From assembly GCF_009931435.1 (NCBI RefSeq), contig NZ_CP043414.1: a DNA stretch of 64,000 nt; one strand, written 5' to 3'. The DNA comes from Escherichia coli (GTDB taxonomy: Bacteria; Pseudomonadota; Gammaproteobacteria; Enterobacterales; Enterobacteriaceae). The translations under genes were made by a program, and so were the position numbers. Positions 3,071 through 22,359 of this stretch are shown one piece after another; the first letter of the stretch is position 1, and every line of letters begins with the position of its first letter. The notes beneath the pieces were generated by a model that saw only the letters and a program-made list of their open reading frames with translations, made no database searches and was not told the origin of the DNA.

Positions 3071-5031
<1,961 letters not shown>

Positions 5032-5209
5032 TCTCTCCCCTTCCCCGGTCGTCTGACCGGGGAATACTCTTCCTCTCCAATATGCATCATCTTTTCCCAT
5101 AATATTAAACAAATAAACTCATTAAAAAAATGAGCGATTTTTGACAGTCGTAGAAAATGATAATGCAGAGAATATGCCTTTTCTTTCTTGTTAATTATAA
5201 GGATATTTT

Positions 5210-6502
5210 ATGCGCTATAATGGTTTAAATAATATGTTTTTCCCTCTTTGCCTGATTAACGATAACCACCCTGTCACAAGTCCATCACATACAAAGAAAA
5301 CAGAATCAGATAATTATAGCAAACATCATAAAGACACGTTAATTGACAATAAAGCCCTCTCTCTTTTCAAAATGGATGATCATGAAAAAGTGATAGGCTT
5401 GATTCAGAAAATGAAAAGAACTTATGATACTTTACCATCAGGAAAAATCACTAAAGAAACGGACAGGAAAATTCATAAATATTTTATAGATATAGCTTTA
5501 TACGCAAGTAATAAATATGACGATAGAATTACGAGAAGAGTTTACCTTAATAAAGATAAGGAAGTGTCAATTAAGGTAGTGTATTTTATAAATAATGTCA
5601 CTGTCCATAATAATACTATCGAAATCCCACAGACAGTAAATGGTGGTTACGATTTTTCACACCTTAGCCTGAAAGGTATCAGGATTAAAGATGAAGATTT
5701 ATCCAATTCGGATTTTGCAGGTTGCAGACTACAAAATGCTATTTTCCAGGGCTGTAATATGTATCAAACGAATTTTAATTTTGCCATAATGGAAAAAATA
5801 ATTTTTGATAATTGTATTCTCGATGACTCAAATTTCGCTCAGATAAAAATGACTGACGGAACTCTAAATGCATGCTCCGCTATGCATGTTGAATTCTTCA
5901 ATGCAACAATGATTAGAGCTAAAATTAAAAATACCTTCCTTGACTATTCAAATTTTTATATGGCGTACATGGCTGAGGTGAATCTTTATAAAGTAATAGC
6001 GCCATATGTTAATTTATTTAGAGCCGACCTTAGTTTCTCTAAACTCGATTTAATTAACTTTGAACATGCTAATCTTTCTCGCGTCAACCTGAACAAAGCA
6101 ACCCTCCAGAATATAAACTTAATTAATAGCAAACTCTTTTTTACGCGGCTGACAAATACGTTCCTCGAAATGGTTATATGTACCGATTCTAATATGGCTA
6201 ATGCTAATTTTAATAATGCCAATTTAAGCAATTGCCATTTCAACTGTTCTATTTTAACAAAAGCCTGGATGTTTAATACCCGTTTCTATCGGGTTAATTT
6301 CGATGAGGCTATCGTCCAGGGAATGGGCATATCCATTCTCCGTGGGGAGGATAATATTCCCATTAATAGTGATATCCTGATAACACTACAGCAACTCTTT
6401 GAAGAGGATTGTGCCACTCATACTGGCATGTCACAAACTGAGCATAATATTCAGGAAGTGTCTATGAATACCACTGAAGATACTATGCAATACGCAGATT
6501 GA
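5210..6502 (+). CDS. yjcF: Pentapeptide-repeat protein, 430 aa, AT-rich gene
   Basis: 430 aa; long run of pentapeptide-like repeats (…SNSDFAGCRLQNAIFQGCNMYQTNFNFAIMEKIIFDNCILDDSNFAQ…); position and size match K-12 yjcF; markedly lower GC than neighbours. Confidence 0.8.
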   Translation: MRYNGLNNMFFPLCLINDNHPVTSPSHTKKTESDNYSKHHKDTLIDNKALSLFKMDDHEKVIGLIQKMKRTYDTLPSGKITKETDRKIHKYFIDIALYASNKYDDRITRRVYLNKDKEVSIKVVYFINNVTVHNNTIEIPQTVNGGYDFSHLSLKGIRIKDEDLSNSDFAGCRLQNAIFQGCNMYQTNFNFAIMEKIIFDNCILDDSNFAQIKMTDGTLNACSAMHVEFFNATMIRAKIKNTFLDYSNFYMAYMAEVNLYKVIAPYVNLFRADLSFSKLDLINFEHANLSRVNLNKATLQNINLINSKLFFTRLTNTFLEMVICTDSNMANANFNNANLSNCHFNCSILTKAWMFNTRFYRVNFDEAIVQGMGISILRGEDNIPINSDILITLQQLFEEDCATHTGMSQTEHNIQEVSMNTTEDTMQYAD

Positions 6503-13539: not shown

Positions 13540-13548
13540 TGGCGGGAG

Positions 13549-13580
13549 TTTGTGCAGGATCCCCGGTGATTCTGCACAAA
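13549..13580. terminator. Inverted repeat between convergent yjcB and island porin gene
   Basis: tttgtgcag ... ctgcacaaa (9-bp arms, 14-nt loop); weak terminator candidate at the left island junction. Confidence 0.4.
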
Positions 13581-13594
13581 CAAATGATTAAGAC

Positions 13595-14956
13595 CTACAG
13601 TTTGATTGTAATCTGAGTTCCCACAACCCAGGCGTCGTCGATTTCACTCACCCCACCGGGATCAATCAGCAACTGCACATTGGGTCGCAATGTTAACCAC
13701 GGCGTCACCACAAAACTGTAATGCAATTCTGCCGCATACTCAGCGTCTCTTACTGGCGTCCAGGCGGGATTATCATAATCATCAAGACCCTTTTTATCAT
13801 TGAGCAATTGCGCCCGTCTGGCTACTTTACTGTTTTCGTGCATTTTGCTGACGCCAAAGCCAATGTAATCCTGCCCCCGACCGGAAAATGGCCCTTTATA
13901 AATAGCGCCAATTTGCGTCTGGTAATCCATTGTCGCAGTATCCCGATCATTCATCGCCAGATGCCAGAACAGAGAAAGGCCACCACGAGGAGAACGGGGA
14001 TCAGCAGTCACTTGCTGGAGTAAGTAGATCCAGCCACCGTAACGCCCATCGTGAGTCGCCGGGGGACGTTGGCTCGTAACGTAGTCATCGCCTTCTGCAT
14101 CCTTCAGGACGTCACTGGCTTTTGCTGTGTTATACCAGGCTCCTACTTTCCAGGCACCCGGAAGTTTATTCGCACCCAGCGTTGGTGTATACCCAAATTC
14201 CATAAGGTACATATTTCCTAATCTTCCAGTATTATCCAACTGGAAACTGCCGCTTCGCGTCGCATAATTTGGGTTATACATAAACGCGCCGGTCTGCAAA
14301 TAAACTTGCGGTGTAAAATTATAACGTAACCTGGCCCCCCACTGACCAATCGGTGTGTTATACCAGACTCCCGCACCATGACCTGCCAACGAACCACAGA
14401 GGGAAAGGTTCTGGAAATAACAACCATTGTTATCGAAGTCTTCGCCAACCGGCATTAATCCTAACTTTAAATCAATCGTTTTTGCATACCATGATTGACG
14501 ATACCAGAATTGCGCGGCATGCCAGGTTTGACCCCGGCCATAGTTACTGTTTACCGTCGAGCCAATCACTGGGGCTCGAGGATCCTGAATTCTGTCGCTG
14601 GTAAGATCGCGGCCGTTACGATCGATAACAGAGACTTTAAACTCTCCATCCGTGATACCCGCAATTTTTTGCAGATCAAAATCGGCACCGATAATATACT
14701 GGTCGCTATATCGCGCCGTCCGATCCTTGTTATAACCGCCTGAAATATTCGATGTCACCATCGAGCCATATTCCAGAGTAAAATCATATCCTTTGTTTTT
14801 TAACTCACTACGCACTCCATTCCAATCTCCAGCCATATATTTTCCGGTTGAGGAAAAAGGTAACTCATTGGCTAACGAACCAAATGGGAACATCAGTATC
14901 ATCAGGAAAATATAATTTTCCCGTATAGAATGATCCATATTATTTATCCTTTGCAA
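13595..14956 (-). CDS. Accessory island gene 1: outer-membrane porin-like protein (OprB/carbohydrate-selective or OprD-like; family uncertain), 453 aa or shorter
   Basis: Signal-peptide-like N-terminus (…FLMILMFPFGSLA|NELP…); mature part rich in Gly/Tyr/Asn/aromatic residues with alternating hydrophobicity typical of beta-barrel porins; N-terminal GDWNGVRSELKNKGYDF…NISGG resembles the OprB-family start as I recall it. True start may be the internal MDHS. Confidence 0.6.
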   Translation of the reverse strand: MQRINNMDHSIRENYIFLMILMFPFGSLANELPFSSTGKYMAGDWNGVRSELKNKGYDFTLEYGSMVTSNISGGYNKDRTARYSDQYIIGADFDLQKIAGITDGEFKVSVIDRNGRDLTSDRIQDPRAPVIGSTVNSNYGRGQTWHAAQFWYRQSWYAKTIDLKLGLMPVGEDFDNNGCYFQNLSLCGSLAGHGAGVWYNTPIGQWGARLRYNFTPQVYLQTGAFMYNPNYATRSGSFQLDNTGRLGNMYLMEFGYTPTLGANKLPGAWKVGAWYNTAKASDVLKDAEGDDYVTSQRPPATHDGRYGGWIYLLQQVTADPRSPRGGLSLFWHLAMNDRDTATMDYQTQIGAIYKGPFSGRGQDYIGFGVSKMHENSKVARRAQLLNDKKGLDDYDNPAWTPVRDAEYAAELHYSFVVTPWLTLRPNVQLLIDPGGVSEIDDAWVVGTQITIKL

Positions 14957-15060
14957 TCCGAATATAACATTCAGAGAAGCGCTACTGGCAAATATTTCTT
15001 AATGCTGGTGAAACACAGAAATTCTCTGGCAGGCCGATCCTTTCTTCCCGGTCAGTACGG

Positions 15061-16527
15061 CTACGGCGAAAGCTCTTCCAGTGATTTTCCCTTCGTTTCA
15101 ATAGCGAACAAATAGGTAACCAGGCCGCCTATTAACGCGATGACTGCGAACACAATAAAAACAAAGCGGATCCCAAAACCAGAAACAATGAATCCCACCA
15201 GCAACGGTCCAACGGAAGAGCCAGCCCGCAACCAGGCACTGGAAAATGCCGTTCCAATCGCTCTCAGGCGAGTGGGGTATAGCTCTGCAGAGTAGAGATA
15301 AAGAGAGAAGGCAATGGTCTGGAGAATGGCATACGTCATACTACCGAAAATAAGGATTTCAATGGCAGATTTGGCTCCGAAAATACAAAGAGTCACTAAC
15401 GGGATAATGGCCAGTAAATAAGCCCAGGTATACCAGCATTTTCTTCCAATACGATCGATAAGCAGTGCACAAATTACCGACGCAAAAACTCCACAGGAGG
15501 AAGTAATCCAACCATAAGCCAGACTGGTTTCCAGTGGTAAGTGAAAAAGCGTTTTATACATGGTAGGAAACCAGGTGATCATACCATTGTTCACCGTATA
15601 AACGGTCAGCCATAGTCCCCATAACATAAACGTGCGTGATTTATAGATGCCGGAAAATAGTTCTTTTACGCCACCTGCAGGTTCCTTTTGCACAACTGCA
15701 GGATTAATCACCGGCTCAGGTAATTCCATTCCTCGCTGCAGCGCTTCTTTCTCAAACGCCGCAACGACTTTCTCAGCCTGAACATGGCGACCTTTCGCTG
15801 TTAACCAGCGTGGAGACTCAGGCATTAACCAGCGTAACGGAACCGTCAATGCCGAAGGGATAAGACCTATCAAAAACATCACTTTCCAGCCGTAAAGCGG
15901 AACAAGAAAATAGCCTACAAGACCAGCAAACATCATACCGATCGGAAAAATCACCTCGTAGAGTAAAAAAAAGCGGCCACGTTTTTTTGCTCCGATAAAT
16001 TCATTGATATAAGCGCTGGCAACCGGAACTTCTGCCCCTATTCCTAATCCTTGCAGGAAACGGATAACCAGAATCGACCATCCATTCCAGGCAAACAGGC
16101 AAGCGGCATCCATCGCGACGAACATCACAATGGTGATACGCAACACGCCAATGCGGCCAATTTTTTCTGCCAGAGAGCCAAAAAAGAGTGCGCCGCAGAG
16201 CTGCCCAACATAGCTTGCGGCAATGATCAGCCCGATGAAGGTTGGTGTTAATCCCCATTCCTGAGTGAGTTGCGGTAGCGCAAAAGCTATCGCGATAATG
16301 GTGTAAGCATCAAAGAATGTCGATAAACCCACCACTACACGAATAGCTAAAAGACGCCTGGTGACAGGGAGTCGTTCGAGCCTGGCAAGCAGCGTTGCGG
16401 GATCGCCTTCCCGCGGACTGGCAATAATACTTTCAGAAGTAATAACCTGAGTTGACATAGCGATATCCTGTTGATTGATTCGCAAGACAACGAACTGCGC
16501 CAAACCCAGCGGCTGGCAGCTATTCAC
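15061..16527 (-). CDS. Accessory island gene 2: MFS transporter (sugar-porter / aromatic-acid:H+ symporter-like), about 465-488 aa
   Basis: 12-TM profile; MFS signature motifs (…GRIGVLRITI…, …LMPESPRWL…). Track start is GTG at 16527; MSTQVITSES at about 16458 is an alternative start. Confidence 0.8.
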   Translation of the reverse strand: MNSCQPLGLAQFVVLRINQQDIAMSTQVITSESIIASPREGDPATLLARLERLPVTRRLLAIRVVVGLSTFFDAYTIIAIAFALPQLTQEWGLTPTFIGLIIAASYVGQLCGALFFGSLAEKIGRIGVLRITIVMFVAMDAACLFAWNGWSILVIRFLQGLGIGAEVPVASAYINEFIGAKKRGRFFLLYEVIFPIGMMFAGLVGYFLVPLYGWKVMFLIGLIPSALTVPLRWLMPESPRWLTAKGRHVQAEKVVAAFEKEALQRGMELPEPVINPAVVQKEPAGGVKELFSGIYKSRTFMLWGLWLTVYTVNNGMITWFPTMYKTLFHLPLETSLAYGWITSSCGVFASVICALLIDRIGRKCWYTWAYLLAIIPLVTLCIFGAKSAIEILIFGSMTYAILQTIAFSLYLYSAELYPTRLRAIGTAFSSAWLRAGSSVGPLLVGFIVSGFGIRFVFIVFAVIALIGGLVTYLFAIETKGKSLEELSP

Positions 16528-16565
16528 TTGCAGTTATTTGAGAATCTATCTGCATAAAAACCATA

Positions 16566-16593
16566 ATGAAAACGTTTCTGCAATCGTTTTCAT
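16566..16593. promoter_or_regulatory. Operator-like inverted repeat atgaaaacg-N10-cgttttcat in the divergent MFS / regulator promoter region
   Basis: Perfect 9-bp arms with 10-bp spacer; embedded tgcaatcgttttca fits the LacI/cre-type pattern TGnAAnCGnTTnCA; followed by tataat at 16595-16600. Second copy at 18068-18093. Confidence 0.45.
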
Positions 16594-16885
16594 GTATAAT
16601 TATCGTCATTAGTTTCCCGGGGGATGTCAATTCGACTCAGCGAATATTTGTTAATCAGTTCACATTCCGGATATCTGCTTAGAGAAAAAATGTGATGTTG
16701 TTCTTAAAGCCATCAAGAAAGCTCGCGACAAAGATCGGATACGTACACGCTCAGGACGTAGTAAACATCCAACATTTCTTTGTACATACAAAAAATTGCC
16801 GTACCATTTTACAAGGCCAATCATTACGCACTGGCCTTTTGAATGACGGGACCTTTCAGGTAATTAATACATACGGGAGTCAGCT

Positions 16886-17914
16886 ATGAGCCTGGAAAGC
16901 GAAGAAAAAGACCAAACAGAAAAAAAGCTGATCACCATGCGTGACGTGGCGAATGCTGCCGGGGTGAGTATTTCTACCGTTTCGCGTATCCTGGATGAAA
17001 GATTACCGCCATCTAAAAGCGCTTCTGCCGAAAAAGTACGCCAGGTCGCACGCGAATTGGGCTATCGTCGGGATTATGTTGCCTCCAGTCTCCGTCGCGG
17101 CGGCACCGGGACACTTGGTGTATTAGTTCCACGCCTGACTGATGCAGTTACTGCAATGTTGTTTGAAGAAATCGCTAAAGCAGCGTCGCATCGTGGTTAC
17201 TTCGCAGTGGTCGCGACTTGTGGAGACGATCCCCAGCAAGAGCGAGAATCTGTAGAATCACTTCTCGACAGGCGGGTCGACGGCTTGATTATGTCAACCT
17301 GTCGCCTCGGCGATCCCCTACCGCAAACTTTGCGTGAAAGGGATATTCCCCATGTGCTCGCCCTGCGTACTGATGGTGTTAGCCCATCATCCATCGGCGA
17401 TGATGAACTGGGTGGTTACCTTGCTACTCGCCATCTTATTGATTTAGGACATAAAAACATCGGTTTGATAGGTGGCCCGGATTTTGCCTCAAATGCGCTT
17501 AATCGCCGTAAAGGTTTTGAAAAGGCAATGCGCGAAGCCGGACTAACTATACAGCCGCAATGGTGCTGTTCATCAGACTTTAACATCCAGTCGGGAGAAG
17601 AAGCAGGGATGAAACTCCTCAGAACGACTCCTGCTCCAACCGCTATTTTTGCGGTAAATGACGAAATAGCGATTGGTGTGGTTGCTGCCGCTCACCATTT
17701 GGGGATAACAATCGGCCAAGAGTTGTCGTTAGTGGGTTATAACGACATTCCTCTGGTCAGCCGACTTCCTGTGGCGCTCACTTCCGTAAGAACGCCGCTA
17801 GAGCATATCGCCAGTAATGCTGTGGACATGTTGATTAATGCCGACAGTGGCCGCTCTTTGCGTACAACCATACCGACTTTAATACCAAGAAAATCAACGA
17901 GTTCACCCAAGTAA
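16886..17914 (+). CDS. Accessory island gene 3: LacI-family transcriptional regulator, about 325-342 aa
   Basis: N-terminal HTH (…ITMRDVANAAGVSISTVSRILDE…) followed by a periplasmic-binding-protein-like sugar-binding domain; alternative start at MRDVA (about 16937). Confidence 0.85.
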   Translation: MSLESEEKDQTEKKLITMRDVANAAGVSISTVSRILDERLPPSKSASAEKVRQVARELGYRRDYVASSLRRGGTGTLGVLVPRLTDAVTAMLFEEIAKAASHRGYFAVVATCGDDPQQERESVESLLDRRVDGLIMSTCRLGDPLPQTLRERDIPHVLALRTDGVSPSSIGDDELGGYLATRHLIDLGHKNIGLIGGPDFASNALNRRKGFEKAMREAGLTIQPQWCCSSDFNIQSGEEAGMKLLRTTPAPTAIFAVNDEIAIGVVAAAHHLGITIGQELSLVGYNDIPLVSRLPVALTSVRTPLEHIASNAVDMLINADSGRSLRTTIPTLIPRKSTSSPK

Positions 17915-17923
17915 AGCCTGTCT

Positions 17924-17962
17924 TTCATTTGCTGCAAAACCCGGGGTTTTGCAGCAAATGAA
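17924..17962. other. 39-bp near-perfect palindrome just downstream of the regulator gene
   Basis: ttcatttgctgcaaaaccc-g-gggttttgcagcaaatgaa (19-bp arms); no U-tract follows, so either an unusual terminator or a protein-binding site. Confidence 0.4.
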
Positions 17963-18067
17963 GAACATTAAAATTCTTATATTCCTTCCCTGATTTTGTG
18001 ATCCCTGCTGCATTTTTCAACAACTGTTGATTGACAACCTCATTCATCAGGTTCAAATTCAATCTTG

Positions 18068-18093
18068 TGAAAACGATTGCAAGAACGTTTTCA
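18068..18093. promoter_or_regulatory. Operator-like inverted repeat tgaaaacg-N10-cgttttca upstream of the DapA-like/FAH/Dcu genes
   Basis: Perfect 8-bp arms, 10-bp spacer, about 60-80 bp upstream of the ATG at 18151; first arm plus spacer (tgaaaacgattgca) matches TGnAAnCGnTTnCA exactly. Same architecture as 16566-16593. Confidence 0.45.
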
Positions 18094-18150
18094 TTTCGTT
18101 TCTTGCATTGTCCACATAATAAAAAAGACTAAATTATTAAGGAGATAGTC

Positions 18151-19080
18151 ATGATCAATATAGATCTCAGAGGTTTGACCCCGGCACCGGTTACCCCTTT
18201 CAATCGTGATGGTAGTATTGATTTTGATGCTATCCAGCGTCTGGGAAGCTGGCTGGGTAGTATTGACGGCGTTAAAGGGTTAGTTGTACTTGGTCATGCT
18301 GGTGAAGGTACTTTCCTGACACAAGATGAACAGGCCGCTGTGATCCGTGCTTTCGTAAAATCCGTAGATGGCAAGCTGCCTATCATTGCCGGTATCACCG
18401 GTGAAGGGACTGACGTCGCTGCTAAAGAAGCCAAACGTGCCGTGGAAGCTGGTGCTTCAGCAGGCCTGTTATATCCTTCTCATGGATGGTTGCGTTTCGG
18501 CTACCAGGACGGCGCACCACAAGATCGCTACCGCGTTGTCTATGAAGAAAGCGGCCTGCCCTTGATCCTGTTTCAGTATCCTGATGTGACTAAAGCAACC
18601 TATAATCTGCAAACACTGCTGGATATTTCCGCACAACCCGGTGTTTTTGCTATGAAAAATGGTGTACGCAATATGCGTCGTTGGGATACAGAGATCCCGG
18701 TTATCCGCCGCGAGCGTCCGGAATTACAGATCCTCAGTTGCCATGATGAATATCTGGTACACACTGCTTTTGACGTAGATGGTTTCCTTGTCGGCTATGG
18801 CAATATTGCGCCAGAACCGCTCATCGAGATGATCAAAGCAGGTAAAGCTGGCGATTATAAAAAAGCACGCGCGATACATGACCGTCTGCTGCCAGTAACG
18901 AAGTGCGTATATCATCGCGGTTCCCATATGGAAGGAACCGTCGCCCTGAAACACGCGCTGGTTGCTCGCGGTATTCTCGAACATGCTACTGTTCGTTCAC
19001 CGCTATTACCGCTGGAGCATGGTGCCGAAGAAGAAATTCATGCTGCTATGCGTGCAGCTGACCTGCCGCGCGTTAAATAA
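18151..19080 (+). CDS. Accessory island gene 4: DapA/NAL-family class I aldolase or dehydratase (dihydrodipicolinate synthase-like), 309 aa
   Basis: Family-typical layout: …TPAPVTPFNRDGSIDFDAIQRLGSWL…GLVVLGHAGEGTFLTQDEQ…, Tyr in …LFQYPDVT…, candidate Schiff-base Lys in …VFAMKNGV…. Good ribosome-binding site (aaggag) upstream. Confidence 0.8.
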   Translation: MINIDLRGLTPAPVTPFNRDGSIDFDAIQRLGSWLGSIDGVKGLVVLGHAGEGTFLTQDEQAAVIRAFVKSVDGKLPIIAGITGEGTDVAAKEAKRAVEAGASAGLLYPSHGWLRFGYQDGAPQDRYRVVYEESGLPLILFQYPDVTKATYNLQTLLDISAQPGVFAMKNGVRNMRRWDTEIPVIRRERPELQILSCHDEYLVHTAFDVDGFLVGYGNIAPEPLIEMIKAGKAGDYKKARAIHDRLLPVTKCVYHRGSHMEGTVALKHALVARGILEHATVRSPLLPLEHGAEEEIHAAMRAADLPRVK

Positions 19081-19351
19081 CTCCGGCAACAGAAAAGAAA
19101 GCAGTATTCTAAATCACTACTCCTGATGGTTATTGCTTTCTTTCACTTAATGCCACATTAACGACGACAGCCACCTTTACATACAATCATAAGGTGGCTC
19201 ATTCTCTTCATCAGCCTATTGTCGCGCCGGGCTATTTTGAATAACTCAGATGTAATAATGATGAGATTGTTAGAATCCAGGCCATAGTACAACGTCTCAG
19301 AAGCCAGAAGGTAAGTAATGCCCTGATCATGGCATGAATTGAAGGAACATC

Positions 19352-20233
19352 ATGAAACTGCTCAGTTTTTCTGTAGATAACGAAGAAAAGTATGGTGCCA
19401 TCGTATCCGATGGAATTATTGACTTGCATAAATTATTTCCCGAACTTCCCGACCTGAAATCATACGTTGCCAGTCAACATTCATTAGACATCGCTTTGTT
19501 TGCAGGTAAAAAAGCCGATTACCATCAGGGCGAAGTGACTTTTCTGCCCGTAATTACTCGACCAAATAAAATCATCTGCGCAGGTATGAACTACCGGGAA
19601 AAATGTGCAGAATTTAATGAAAAAGGTGGCGATCCGACGCTATTTATCCGTTTTGCTGATACTCAGACGGGCCACCGTTGTGGGTTAATAAAACCGACCC
19701 TGAGTAATGAATTTGATTATGAAGGCGAACTGGCGGTAATTATAGGTCGCCAGGGTTCTCACATTCCTGCTGATGAAGCATTTAACTATATTGCCGGGTA
19801 TAGCTGTTATATGGATGGTTCCGTTCGTGACTGGCAGCACAGCTGGTTTACTGCCGGTAAAAATTGGCCTGCAACAGGTGGATTCGGGCCATGGATGGTT
19901 ACGCCAGATGAAATTCCTGACCCTCAAAATCTGAATATTATCACCCGTCTTAACGGCAAGGAAGTGCAGAATGATAATACACATAGCATGCTGCACTCTA
20001 TTAAGGATTTGATTGCCTATATCAGTACTTTCACCACCTTATCGCCCGGTGACGTGATATTAACAGGCTCTCCGGGTGGGGTCGGTAAAAAACGCTCTCC
20101 ACCGCTCTTCTTGTGGCCTGGTGATATTGTTGAAGTTGAGATTTCAAGAATTGGTTGCCTGATAAATCACATTATAAGCGACAACGAAGAGTATCCGGTC
20201 ACTTTACAATCAGAACTCGATAACGCCTGCTGA
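19352..20233 (+). CDS. Accessory island gene 5: fumarylacetoacetate hydrolase (FAH) family protein (hydratase/decarboxylase/hydrolase type), 293 aa
   Basis: FAH-fold core …FDYEGELAVIIGRQGSHIPADEAFNYIAGYSCYMDGSVRDWQ… and …GDVILTGSPGGVG…. Confidence 0.8.
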   Translation: MKLLSFSVDNEEKYGAIVSDGIIDLHKLFPELPDLKSYVASQHSLDIALFAGKKADYHQGEVTFLPVITRPNKIICAGMNYREKCAEFNEKGGDPTLFIRFADTQTGHRCGLIKPTLSNEFDYEGELAVIIGRQGSHIPADEAFNYIAGYSCYMDGSVRDWQHSWFTAGKNWPATGGFGPWMVTPDEIPDPQNLNIITRLNGKEVQNDNTHSMLHSIKDLIAYISTFTTLSPGDVILTGSPGGVGKKRSPPLFLWPGDIVEVEISRIGCLINHIISDNEEYPVTLQSELDNAC

Positions 20234-20320
20234 TTATAAAGTTAACGAAAAATTCGGATAGATAGCCTGGCACTTTAGAAATTAACATTAAGTGGTAGGC
20301 AATCCTTTCAAGGAGTATGC

Positions 20321-21610
20321 GTGATGATCATGCTGCAATTTATTATCGTTTTATTTTTCCTGTTTTTAGGAATGCGTATTGGCGGCATTGGTGTCGGATT
20401 TGCTGGTGGGGCAGGTGTCATCGCCTTGTGCGCCCTTGGTGCAACACCCGGCGATTTACCGATGCTGGTGATCGTTTTTATTATGGTTGTCATCATTGCA
20501 ATTGCTGCAATGCAAGAAGCGGGTGGGATTGACTATCTGGTTGGTTTAACCGAAAAAATGCTTCGCCGCTACCCTCGCCTGCTGGTAATAACTGCACCTC
20601 TGTCTACATGGCTATTAACCATGATGGCCAGTACCGGTCAGGTGTCATTTGCCTGTATGCCGGTTATTGTGGGTGTCGCGAAGGAAAATCAACTTCGTCC
20701 CACCCGGGCGTTGGCGCTTTCGGTTACCGCTTCATTGTTAGGTATTGTTGCCTCGCCTATCTCTGCCGCCGTTATTTTCTTTTCAGGCATCCTGGAAAAA
20801 AATCACCAGGGATGGGGATATTTGCAACTCATTGCCGTTTCTATACCGGCTACTTTATTAGCGTTGATTTGTACTTCGCTTTTTTACCTGTTCTGGGACA
20901 AACTTCGCCAGAATGATCAATTACCCGTACATATGGCTGTAACGAAAAAATCTCTGTCTGCGCCTGTGGTACAGGGAGCTCGTCGCTCAGTACTAATATT
21001 TATTTTTGGCCTAGTTGTAGTACTTTTTTACGCCCTCATTGCCAGTCCGAAAACAGGCGTTATCATACATCCCGTTTTAAATAGTGGACAGGTCCGTATT
21101 TCAGTAATGATGGCTGTAGCACTCGCCATTGTTATGTTTTGCCGGGTAAATGTGAATAACATTCCTGCGACATCAGTTTTTAAAACAGGGATGACGTCAT
21201 GCATCTGTATTTTAGGTGTCGCCTGGCTCGGTTCTACATTCATGGATAGTAACCAGGTGTGGTTTCAAAGCATGATTTCCGGATATTTATTAGATTCACC
21301 ATTGTTGCTGGCAATTATTATTATGCTGGCGTCATGTTTTCTATATTCTCAGGCGGCCTCCACCAAAATACTTTTTCCTATTGCATTAAGTATGGGTATC
21401 GCCCCTGCCACTCTGGTCGCCTGCTTTCCAGCAACGGCTTCTCTTTTTATTTTACCTAACTACCCCACATTATTAGCCGCCGTGACTCTTGATGATACGG
21501 GGTCAACGAAATTAGGAAATCGAATAATCGATCATCCGTTTATTGTTCCTGGTTTAATGGCAACCGTGTTATCGATACTCTTCGCCGCGGGATTCGCATT
21601 GTTTATTTAA
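20321..21610 (+). CDS. Accessory island gene 6: Dcu-family (DcuA/DcuB-like) C4-dicarboxylate transporter, about 429 aa
   Basis: Close resemblance along the whole length to E. coli DcuA as recalled (…LGMRIGGIGVGFAGGAGV…, …AMQEAGGIDYLV…, …TKLGNRIIDHPFIVPG…); about 10-12 TM segments. Confidence 0.85.
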   Translation: MMIMLQFIIVLFFLFLGMRIGGIGVGFAGGAGVIALCALGATPGDLPMLVIVFIMVVIIAIAAMQEAGGIDYLVGLTEKMLRRYPRLLVITAPLSTWLLTMMASTGQVSFACMPVIVGVAKENQLRPTRALALSVTASLLGIVASPISAAVIFFSGILEKNHQGWGYLQLIAVSIPATLLALICTSLFYLFWDKLRQNDQLPVHMAVTKKSLSAPVVQGARRSVLIFIFGLVVVLFYALIASPKTGVIIHPVLNSGQVRISVMMAVALAIVMFCRVNVNNIPATSVFKTGMTSCICILGVAWLGSTFMDSNQVWFQSMISGYLLDSPLLLAIIIMLASCFLYSQAASTKILFPIALSMGIAPATLVACFPATASLFILPNYPTLLAAVTLDDTGSTKLGNRIIDHPFIVPGLMATVLSILFAAGFALFI

Positions 21611-21698
21611 AATGTATATGGCAGGAGTCAATATCATCAGACTCATAGTTCACATAAAACAAACTGCAGCATCATCAACATCACTCAGGTATTAAAAA

Positions 21699-21720
21699 TC
21701 CCCAACCAGCCTGTTGGGGA
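21699..21720. terminator. Hairpin between island and ssb (likely ssb terminator, bidirectional)
   Basis: tccccaac-cagcct-gttgggga; A-run upstream (a T-run on the ssb strand) and T-rich sequence downstream. Confidence 0.55.
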
Positions 21721-21822
21721 TAAATATGTATTTTTCAATGTCCCGAGTAGCTACCGGGCAGATATCAATCTGAGGCTGTGGCTAACGCACACTGGCGGTA
21801 ACCACCTGAACCAAAAGAAATC

Positions 21823-22359
21823 TTAGAACGGAATGTCGTCATCAAAATCCATCGGCGGCTCATTAGACGGTGCTGCCGGAGCAGACTGCTGCGGGCGAGA
21901 CTGCGCGCCGCCGCTGAACTGATTGCCGCCCTGCGGCTGCTGAGGCTGACCCCAACCGCCCTGCGGCTGACCACCACCGATATTGCCACCTGCAGGAGCG
22001 CCACCACCCTGACGACCACCCAGCATCTGCATGGTGCCGCCAACGTTTACCACAACTTCAGTGGTGTAGCGATCTTGACCGGATTGATCGGTCCATTTGC
22101 GGGTACGCAGCTGACCTTCGATATAAACCTGAGAACCTTTACGCAGATATTCGCTGGCCACTTCTGCCAGTTTGCCGAACAGCACAACGCGGTGCCATTC
22201 AGTCTGCTCTTTCATCTCGCCGGTCGCTTTATCACGCCAGGATTCGGAAGTAGCCAGCGTAATGTTGGCAACTGCGCCACCATTTGGCATGTAGCGTACT
22301 TCCGGGTCCTGACCCAGATTACCAACGAGAATAACCTTGTTTACGCCTCTGCTGGCCAT
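21823..22359 (-). CDS. ssb: Single-stranded DNA-binding protein, 178 aa
   Basis: [44 protein letters not shown]…, Gly/Gln-rich tail ending DFDDDIPF. Confidence 0.97.

Follow-up and report, generated by a model that had tools for sequence, protein, structure and literature searches.

Does a lyase gene beside a keto-acid enzyme gene on an accessory island mark the remains of a longer pathway, or is the arrangement complete as it stands? The question is raised by two intact open reading frames (ORFs) in a stretch of 64,000 nucleotides from the Escherichia coli chromosome (contig NZ_CP043414.1), referred to here as the window. The first (18151-19080, plus strand) encodes a 309-residue enzyme of the DapA/N-acetylneuraminate lyase (NAL) superfamily (PF00701, E = 2e-40), which we call the DapA-like protein. 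The second (19352-20233, plus strand) encodes a 293-residue enzyme of the FAH family (PF01557, E = 6e-59). RefSeq calls the products 'dihydrodipicolinate synthase family protein' and 'fumarylacetoacetate hydrolase family protein', respectively, in E. coli islands identical to this one. Both genes lie on an accessory island of 8.28 kb (13541-21824) between yjcB and ssb, delimited by blastn against MG1655. The original prediction took the pair as the core of an incomplete or unusual sugar-acid route. We favour another explanation, with confidence a little better than even: the island is a complete LacI-controlled uptake-and-cleavage module for one exogenous organic acid, in which the FAH-family protein serves as an accessory keto-acid decarboxylase or tautomerase.

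Gene context of the DapA-like enzyme

The gene context was surveyed at 88 loci from Gamma-, Beta- and Alphaproteobacteria and Rhodococcus. A single unit recurred, consisting of a regulator, the DapA-like enzyme, a transporter encoded immediately downstream and drawn from five families, and usually a porin. The regulators belonged to the LysR (49 loci), LacI (27-28) and IclR (12) families. MFS transporters were found at 64-65 of the 88 loci, and these neighbours were homologues of the island MFS protein with a median identity of 62%. Nramp-related proteins, encoded directly downstream, were found at 11 loci, Dcu carriers at 10, TctC proteins at eight and TAXI-TRAP systems at four. The porins were of the general, OprD, OprB and KdgM types, and nine loci included a chemoreceptor. 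No second enzyme family recurred across the 88 loci. Annotated copies on Agrobacterium C58 pAt, in Marivivens, on a plasmid of Burkholderia cepacia ATCC 25416 and in Acinetobacter baumannii had the same layout. The fungal copies also adjoin an MFS gene, to which Aspergillus adds a Zn2Cys6 factor. Since the DapA-like protein is the only enzyme in the conserved unit, in fungi as well as in bacteria, the module appears to be complete and not a pathway cut short. It would work with a single catabolic enzyme, and the product would pass straight into central metabolism.

This context bears directly on what had been claimed before. The island was said to contain neither a dehydratase nor a dehydrogenase; its gene content confirmed this, and neither enzyme was found in the 88 related loci. 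The proposal that the DapA-like and FAH-family proteins form the core of an incomplete sugar-acid route was not supported. An FAH gene accompanied the DapA-like gene at only 18 of the 88 loci and was absent from the other 70, and the conserved unit contains no further enzyme.

The same counts weigh against a more specific version of that proposal, in which the two genes represent one part of a non-phosphorylative, oxidative pathway for sugar acids. They would then encode a 2-keto-3-deoxy-acid aldolase and an FAH-type KdXD dehydratase or diketo-acid hydrolase, while the dehydrogenase, lactonase and dehydratase lie elsewhere or have been lost. The LacI regulator and OprB porin of the island suit such a pathway, and so does the neighbourhood of one distant relative. 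More distant members of the subfamily (31-50% identity) share the His, Tyr+2, K-x-G-x-R and C-H-D-E motifs described below. The member in Variovorax is clustered with an SDR protein, an enolase-superfamily dehydratase and TctC, and that in Bacillus safensis with a gluconokinase-type kinase, a LacI regulator and an MFS transporter. These sugar-acid-type clusters lend support to the view that the subfamily, taken together, acts on 2-oxo or 2-keto-3-deoxy acids. Within the 88 loci, however, the enzyme and transporter recur together with five transporter families and also in fungi, and we consider the pathway fragment unlikely.

The adjoining transporters also bear on the opposite direction of flow. 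The DapA-like protein might condense pyruvate with an aldehyde to give a chelator- or signal-like product, which the MFS protein and porin would export. DHDPS itself catalyses a condensation, extreme conservation is more usual in biosynthetic than in catabolic enzymes, and some of the adjoining transporters are Nramp-related. However, the Nramp-family proteins (PF01566) in the transporter slot (L047:11118-12422, L073:10989-12410, L074:11010-12287, L079:11023-12294 and L088:11204-12487) lack the DPGN and MPH metal-binding motifs, reading FGPG.. and ..TNFS.. at these sites, and therefore they probably carry organic solutes rather than metal. Importers that depend on solute-binding proteins (TctC and TAXI-TRAP) take the same operon position. 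The chemoreceptors, the substrate-selective porins and the LacI, LysR and IclR regulators are catabolic signatures, and Arg138 of DapA is absent from the DapA-like protein. A biosynthetic and export module is thus very improbable.

A metal-linked function suggested by the Nramp genes was rejected for the same lack of motifs in the slot copies. The canonical MntH proteins that share their BLAST cluster are encoded on the opposite strand, at a distance of 4-5 kb.

In Formivibrio citricus, a citrate-fermenting anaerobe, two DapA-like copies flank a LacI gene (L066:6539-7459 and a copy downstream of the LacI gene), with FAH and MFS genes nearby.

Active site and conservation of the DapA-like protein

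Residues were assigned from an alignment with E. coli DapA and NanA, the sequences of which were verified against PDB 1dhp and 1nal. The protein has the (β/α)8 barrel and C-terminal helical domain of the DHDPS/NAL superfamily. The Schiff-base lysine of strand 6 (K161 in DapA, K165 in NanA) aligns with Lys169, which is invariant in all subfamily members; this is the candidate lysine that had been picked out in the segment FAMKNGV. The two motifs described earlier as non-canonical, GHAGEG and K-N-G, were also borne out by the alignment. The protein reads G48-H-A-G-E-G53 where the family has G-[ST]-T-G-E, and K169-N-G-V-R where the family has K-[EQ]-[AT]-[ST]-G. The Gly and Glu of G-H49-A50-G-E52 are retained, and both hydroxyl residues are gone.

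The proton-relay triad is fully replaced. His49 occupies the position of Thr44 in DapA and Ser47 in NanA, Gly112 that of Tyr107/Tyr110, and Phe141 that of Tyr133/Tyr137, the catalytic Tyr column of strand 5, at which the wider subfamily has Phe or His. Because Phe141 fills this column, the tyrosine of FQYPDV is not the family Tyr for which it had been taken. It is Tyr143, two residues further along the strand, and it is conserved throughout the subfamily. The substrate clamp of DapA, Arg138, which binds aspartate semialdehyde, aligns with Val146. The new invariant features are Arg173 (four residues after the lysine), His111-Gly-Trp-Leu-Arg115, Cys197-His198-Asp199-Glu200 and His255-Arg-Gly-Ser-His259.

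NCBIfam release 20 contained no model specific to this subfamily, and the protein missed every cut-off. It scored 127.8 bits against 206.15 for the dapA equivalog TIGR00674. For N-acetylneuraminate lyase it scored 62 against 382 (TIGR00683) and 83 against 281 (NF003164), the Ser47/Thr48/Tyr137 set of that enzyme being replaced. The KdgD models gave 67-74 bits against cut-offs of 278-374, the match to TIGR03249 (67 against 374) being confined to residues 7-178, and the HpaI-type aldolase model TIGR02313 gave 68.6 against 396.7. A search of the PDB found no solved structure inside the subfamily; the best matches were DapA proteins, with about 29% identity (E = 1e-29). The missed cut-offs, the replaced triad and the lack of a structure within the subfamily strongly support the original prediction of a distinct subfamily or substrate.

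The best PDB and NCBIfam matches bear the DapA name, as would be expected of an ordinary DapA paralogue for lysine and diaminopimelate synthesis. We regard this as practically negligible. The score falls under the dapA cut-off, Thr44, Tyr107, Tyr133 and Arg138 are all replaced, and the gene sits with transporters on a rare accessory island and occurs in fungi. Fungi make lysine by the aminoadipate route.

A different use of the same lysine deserves more weight, although we still think it improbable. Like KdgD, L-2-keto-3-deoxyarabonate (L-KDA) dehydratase or Pyr4H2C deaminase, the protein could be a Schiff-base dehydratase/decarboxylase or deaminase. It would then form 2,5-dioxopentanoate, from which a housekeeping aldehyde dehydrogenase would make 2-oxoglutarate. 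The low scores with the KdgD models argue against this, a ketoglutarate semialdehyde (KGSA) dehydrogenase was linked to the module in no locus, and strict as well as fermentative anaerobes are among the carriers.

The clade is more conserved than most housekeeping proteins, with identities of 77-100% across Proteobacteria, Rhodococcus and Pezizomycotina fungi. Bacterial homologues with 77-94% identity were found in at least 80 species of Gamma-, Beta- and Alphaproteobacteria and Rhodococcus. Fungal homologues with 83-87% identity were found in Aspergillus, Penicillium, Colletotrichum, Pyricularia, Verticillium, Exophiala, Aureobasidium and Orbilia, representing four filamentous ascomycete classes (Sordario-, Eurotio-, Dothideo- and Orbiliomycetes). 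A match was confirmed in 206 species genomes in all, and the bacterial carriers number more than 200 species. An exhaustive search of 1.84 billion representatives placed all full-length members in one 50%-identity cluster, and the next full-length relatives were at most 39% identical; a tier of sequences from rhizobia and Rhodobacterales, about 65% identical, partly fills this gap. Among 189 distinct sequences, 106 of the 309 columns were invariant and 185 were at least 95% conserved.

The fungal copies are intronless. In an unrooted neighbour-joining tree, one split parted the fungi from all bacteria, and the bacteria nearest to the fungi were Enterobacterales. Synonymous divergence (dS) was saturated in nearly all pairs, while nonsynonymous divergence (dN) was just 0.11-0.21. 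The single split, together with saturated dS and low dN, fits one ancient transfer between bacteria and fungi followed by very strong purifying selection. The MFS protein next to the fungal enzyme is not homologous to the bacterial one, and therefore the enzyme gene was not transferred together with its transporter.

Two other sources of the high identity were considered and rejected. Recent horizontal spread disagrees with the saturated dS and with the GC content at third codon positions (GC3), which is fully adapted to each host and ranges from 0.17 in Gilliamella to 0.95 in Rhodoplanes. Dual coding was suggested by an antisense ORF of about 300 codons that spans the DapA-like gene at 63 of the 88 loci, in GC-rich hosts. 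This frame stays open only where GC3 is higher than about 0.6. Interruptions break it up in E. coli, Acinetobacter and Gilliamella, and the E. coli remnant has 86 codons (18724-18984, minus strand). It is an artefact of GC composition that gene callers could mis-annotate.

The FAH-family partner

At the loci that have it, the FAH gene stands in varied gene orders and in three proteobacterial classes, so selection favours the link. These loci belong to enterics, Gilliamella, Telmatospirillum, Propionivibrio, Accumulibacter, Formivibrio and a metagenome-assembled genome of Rhodocyclaceae, and the hosts are mostly facultative or fermentative. Strict aerobes do not have the gene; it is missing from the modules of Acinetobacter, Burkholderiaceae, Halomonas, Marinomonas, Rhodococcus and the fungi.

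The FAH-family protein was aligned with five solved relatives, HpaG, 6j57, 8sky, LRA6 (8gsr) and 6v77. The metal ligands Glu124, Glu126 and Asp155 and the conserved Lys170 are kept, consistent with its membership of PF01557. The His of the N-Y-x-x-H-x-x-E motif is present in all five relatives. In the island protein its place is taken by Lys84, and of the 120 nearest homologues 119 likewise have Lys; the motif of this subfamily is G-M-N-Y-x-x-K-x-x-E. The D-x3-R-x2-Q segment of the soluble oxaloacetate decarboxylases in the FAH family (FAHD1 and Cg1458) is present as D155-x3-R159-x2-Q162, but it occurs in hydrolase relatives as well.

The best NCBIfam match, over the full length, was 2,4-didehydro-3-deoxy-L-rhamnonate hydrolase, and 8gsr is a close relative. 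Both points favour the sugar-acid pathway fragment. However, the score with the LRA6 model NF053535 was 164 bits against a cut-off of 500, and the catalytic His of the hydrolases is absent. HpaG was the best PDB match, but the HpaG-C model TIGR02303 likewise gave 153.7 against 276.4. FAHD1 and Cg1458 were weaker matches, with 90-94 bits. In FAHD1, the equivalent His is reportedly needed for hydrolysis of acylpyruvates and not for decarboxylation of oxaloacetate. Because of this requirement and of the analogy with citrate and tartrate operons, we favour a role for the FAH-family protein as a decarboxylase or tautomerase of an oxalo-type keto acid.

FAH proteins of the Lys subfamily, with 58-62% identity to that of the island, were found in two other acid modules. 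One is a mobile module in the order MFS, LeuC-like, LeuD-like, FAH (Lys type, 62% identical), α/β hydrolase and LysR, seen on a Salmonella chromosome (L096:4567-10792) and a Klebsiella pneumoniae plasmid (L108:4576-10766). Dozens of K. pneumoniae plasmids carry this module, and insertion sequence (IS) elements or an integrase lie at its flanks. The other, on K. pneumoniae plasmid CP052329.1 (L105:3502-9846), has LysR, FAH (58%) and MFS genes beside those for a GalB-like PIG-L hydratase, GalC (aldolase of 4-carboxy-4-hydroxy-2-oxoadipate, CHA, and oxaloacetate decarboxylase) and the tautomerase GalD. No gallate dioxygenase was annotated within the 16-kb stretch around this lower segment.

The island, its operators and the proposed route

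In K-12, the site of the island is a 99-bp ssb-yjcB spacer. The island has a GC content of 0.45-0.48, against about 0.51 in its flanks, and was carried by 12 of 5426 complete E. coli genomes, in every case on the chromosome at the same site and with at least 99.8% identity. It consists of six genes. The minus strand encodes an OprB-family carbohydrate-selective porin (PF04966, E = 1e-91; 13595-14938 as the RefSeq coding sequence, extending to 14956 in the ORF list) and an MFS transporter (Sugar_tr/MFS_1; 15061-16458), which by profile matches is closest to the aromatic-acid:H+ symporter subfamily and is the probable importer of the substrate. The plus strand encodes a LacI-family repressor (16886-17914), also identified by profile matches, the DapA-like and FAH-family enzymes, and a DcuA/DcuB-family anaerobic C4-dicarboxylate transporter (20324-21610; PF03605, E = 3e-102; NF006927, 452 bits with a cut-off of 369). 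No flanking direct repeats or mobility genes were found at the borders in E. coli, and an Rfam scan of the island returned zero matches.

Two LacI/GalR-type operators link these genes. One, TGCAATCGTTTTCA (16579-16592), is part of a composite palindrome of 27 nt (16567-16593) in the promoter region from which the MFS and lacI genes diverge. The other, TGAAAACGATTGCA (18068-18081), lies in a composite at 18068-18094, 83 bp upstream of the ATG of the DapA-like gene. The two resemble each other, as do their 27-nt palindromes. The consensus TGNAANCGNTTNCA has exactly two matches in the window, against 0.07 expected, and both are these promoter sites. In Providencia, Raoultella, Klebsiella, Enterobacillus, Pantoea and Citrobacter, the same operator precedes the enzyme gene at -80 to -98; in Marinobacter it does so at -67. 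The site of the 16579-16592 type is also kept in other enterics. A strong hairpin terminator with 24-bp arms (17919-17967) stands just 3' of lacI. With operators in both promoter regions, their conservation across genera and the hairpin after lacI, the island therefore reads as a single repressor-controlled regulon of two operons.

The spacer between the DapA-like and FAH genes is 271 bp (19081-19351), without a second MFS gene, in E. coli, Providencia, K. michiganensis and Enterobacillus. A second MFS gene fills this position in Raoultella, K. indica, Citrobacter, Dickeya, Rahnella and a K. variicola plasmid. The island gene set, with the extra MFS gene, is carried by a conjugative IncF plasmid of K. 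variicola (NZ_CP056146.1) and by a Rahnella plasmid. On the former it directly adjoins an iac-type cluster (L104:399-6544), which encodes an IacB protein, the subunits of a ring-hydroxylating dioxygenase, a flavin reductase and a member of the acyl-CoA dehydrogenase family; an IS630-family transposase lies on the opposite side. Elsewhere in the window, further low-GC stretches at 34001-36000 (0.365), 44001-46000 (0.407) and 4001-6000 (0.434) may mark more accessory segments.

If the island is a complete uptake-and-cleavage module, an organic acid would cross the outer membrane through the OprB porin and the inner membrane through the MFS symporter or, anaerobically, a Dcu-type carrier. It would lift LacI repression at both operators. 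Through its 2-oxo group the acid would be bound to Lys169 as a Schiff base. His49 and Tyr143 would do the work of the Thr/Tyr/Tyr proton relay that has been lost, and several invariant arginines (Arg115, 173, 176, 177 and 256) would hold extra carboxylates. Cleavage of a C-C bond, or elimination, would then give pyruvate and a second central metabolite with no other dedicated enzyme. The FAH-family protein, with its Lys84, would be an optional addition found mostly in fermenters, which decarboxylates or tautomerises an oxalo-type product, for example oxaloacetate to pyruvate. The substrate is most likely a 2-oxo acid of the 4-hydroxy-2-oxo or 2-keto-3-deoxy type, either a di- or polycarboxylic acid or a sugar acid. 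Candidates are 3-deoxy-D-manno-octulosonate (Kdo), the 4-deoxy-5-keto-uronates released by polysaccharide lyases, 2-keto-3-deoxygluconate (KDG), 5-keto-4-deoxy-aldarates, 4-hydroxy-2-oxoglutarate, parapyruvate and CHA. We know of no gene for Kdo aldolase (EC 4.1.2.23). A 2025 paper cites that enzyme by activity alone, with the gene unnamed (PMC12199768).

Several observations weigh against this explanation. The transporter types diverge: from Dcu, TctC and TAXI one would expect di- or tricarboxylates, from OprB and KdgM porins and LacI regulators sugar-like acids. With the canonical Tyr/Thr/Tyr triad lost, the chemistry could differ from the usual aldol cleavage. Literature searches by family, accession and candidate activity returned nothing on the subfamily, and no reported substrate, product or activity. 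The link between FAH and fermentation is imperfect, as loci in Pantoea, K. variicola and Dickeya oryzae lack the gene, and the role given to the His-to-Lys change is extrapolated from FAHD1 mutagenesis. Finally, ordinary catabolic aldolases are less conserved than this clade, a degree of constraint for which a catabolic role accounts only in part.

More tentatively, and with confidence well short of even, we suggest that the clade may represent a new functional subfamily of the class-I-aldolase fold with a rebuilt active site (Lys169, His49 and Tyr143), which by itself would catalyse a hitherto unrecognised one-step route for the catabolism of a keto acid widespread in nature. It would have been transferred once between bacteria and the ancestor of the filamentous ascomycetes and then have stayed nearly unchanged, under a constraint that other catabolic aldolases do not show. 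The Lys84 FAH proteins might likewise be a new class of soluble oxalo-acid decarboxylases or tautomerases of fermenters.

Three features go beyond what had been noticed earlier in this DNA: hyperconservation across kingdoms, absence of the canonical Tyr, and replacement of His by Lys in the FAH-family protein. The DapA-like protein is a natural experiment, a DHDPS/NAL scaffold that does without the textbook catalytic triad, and it comes with its own transporters, porins, regulators and, at times, chemoreceptors. Identification of the substrate would add a route of carbon flux common to soil, plant-associated, marine, gut and clinical organisms, the carriers including A. baumannii, the B. cepacia complex and Klebsiella plasmids, and could give a gene to an orphan activity. 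With the adjoining solute-binding proteins and the LacI operator at hand, the substrate question can be tested directly.

By residues and scores, the island enzymes belong only to their two superfamilies and fall outside DapA, NAL, KdgD, the HpaI-type aldolase, LRA6 and HpaG. The DapA-like protein shares with DapA the fold, the lysine and the G-x-x-G-E scaffold, but it lacks the catalytic triad and the Arg138 clamp, and its context is catabolic and accessory. An FAH-fold enzyme combined with an aldolase that releases pyruvate from 2-oxo di- or tricarboxylates recalls the lower pathways of meta-cleavage (HpaG/HpcE with HpcG and HpaI; the DHDPS-type 'HpaI-NOT-DapA' of TIGR02313; GalB/GalC). Unlike these, the island has no ring-cleavage or upstream genes, and its FAH-family protein has Lys for their conserved His.

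Enterobacterial citrate and tartrate fermentation operons embed an oxaloacetate decarboxylase and a substrate/succinate antiporter. The island resembles them in being acid-specific, in occurring in facultative anaerobes, and in combining a lyase with a candidate keto-acid decarboxylase and a Dcu- or antiporter-type carrier. Their decarboxylases are membrane Na+ pumps, however, and their lyases are unrelated, so the analogy is functional only. The non-phosphorylative routes for L-rhamnose, L-fucose and pentoses use a DHDPS-type LRA4 or L-KDA dehydratase and an FAH-type LRA6, XylX or HDOP hydrolase on 2-keto-3-deoxy and 2,4-diketo acids (PMC6336799, PMC9795676). The island draws on the same two superfamilies. 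In contrast to those routes, the dehydrogenase, lactonase and dehydratase genes are missing at all loci, FAH is dispensable, and the scores lie far under the cut-offs.

The last comparison is with NanA, which together with NanT, NanC and NanR forms a one-aldolase uptake-and-cleavage regulon for a sugar acid. The DapA-like protein is only 23-24% identical to NanA, with Ser47, Thr48, Tyr110 and Tyr137 changed to His, Ala, Gly and Phe, and unlike the Nan regulon its hyperconserved clade also pairs with dicarboxylate-type carriers and occurs in fungi. In its manner of working, the proposed island module would nonetheless be like the Nan regulon.

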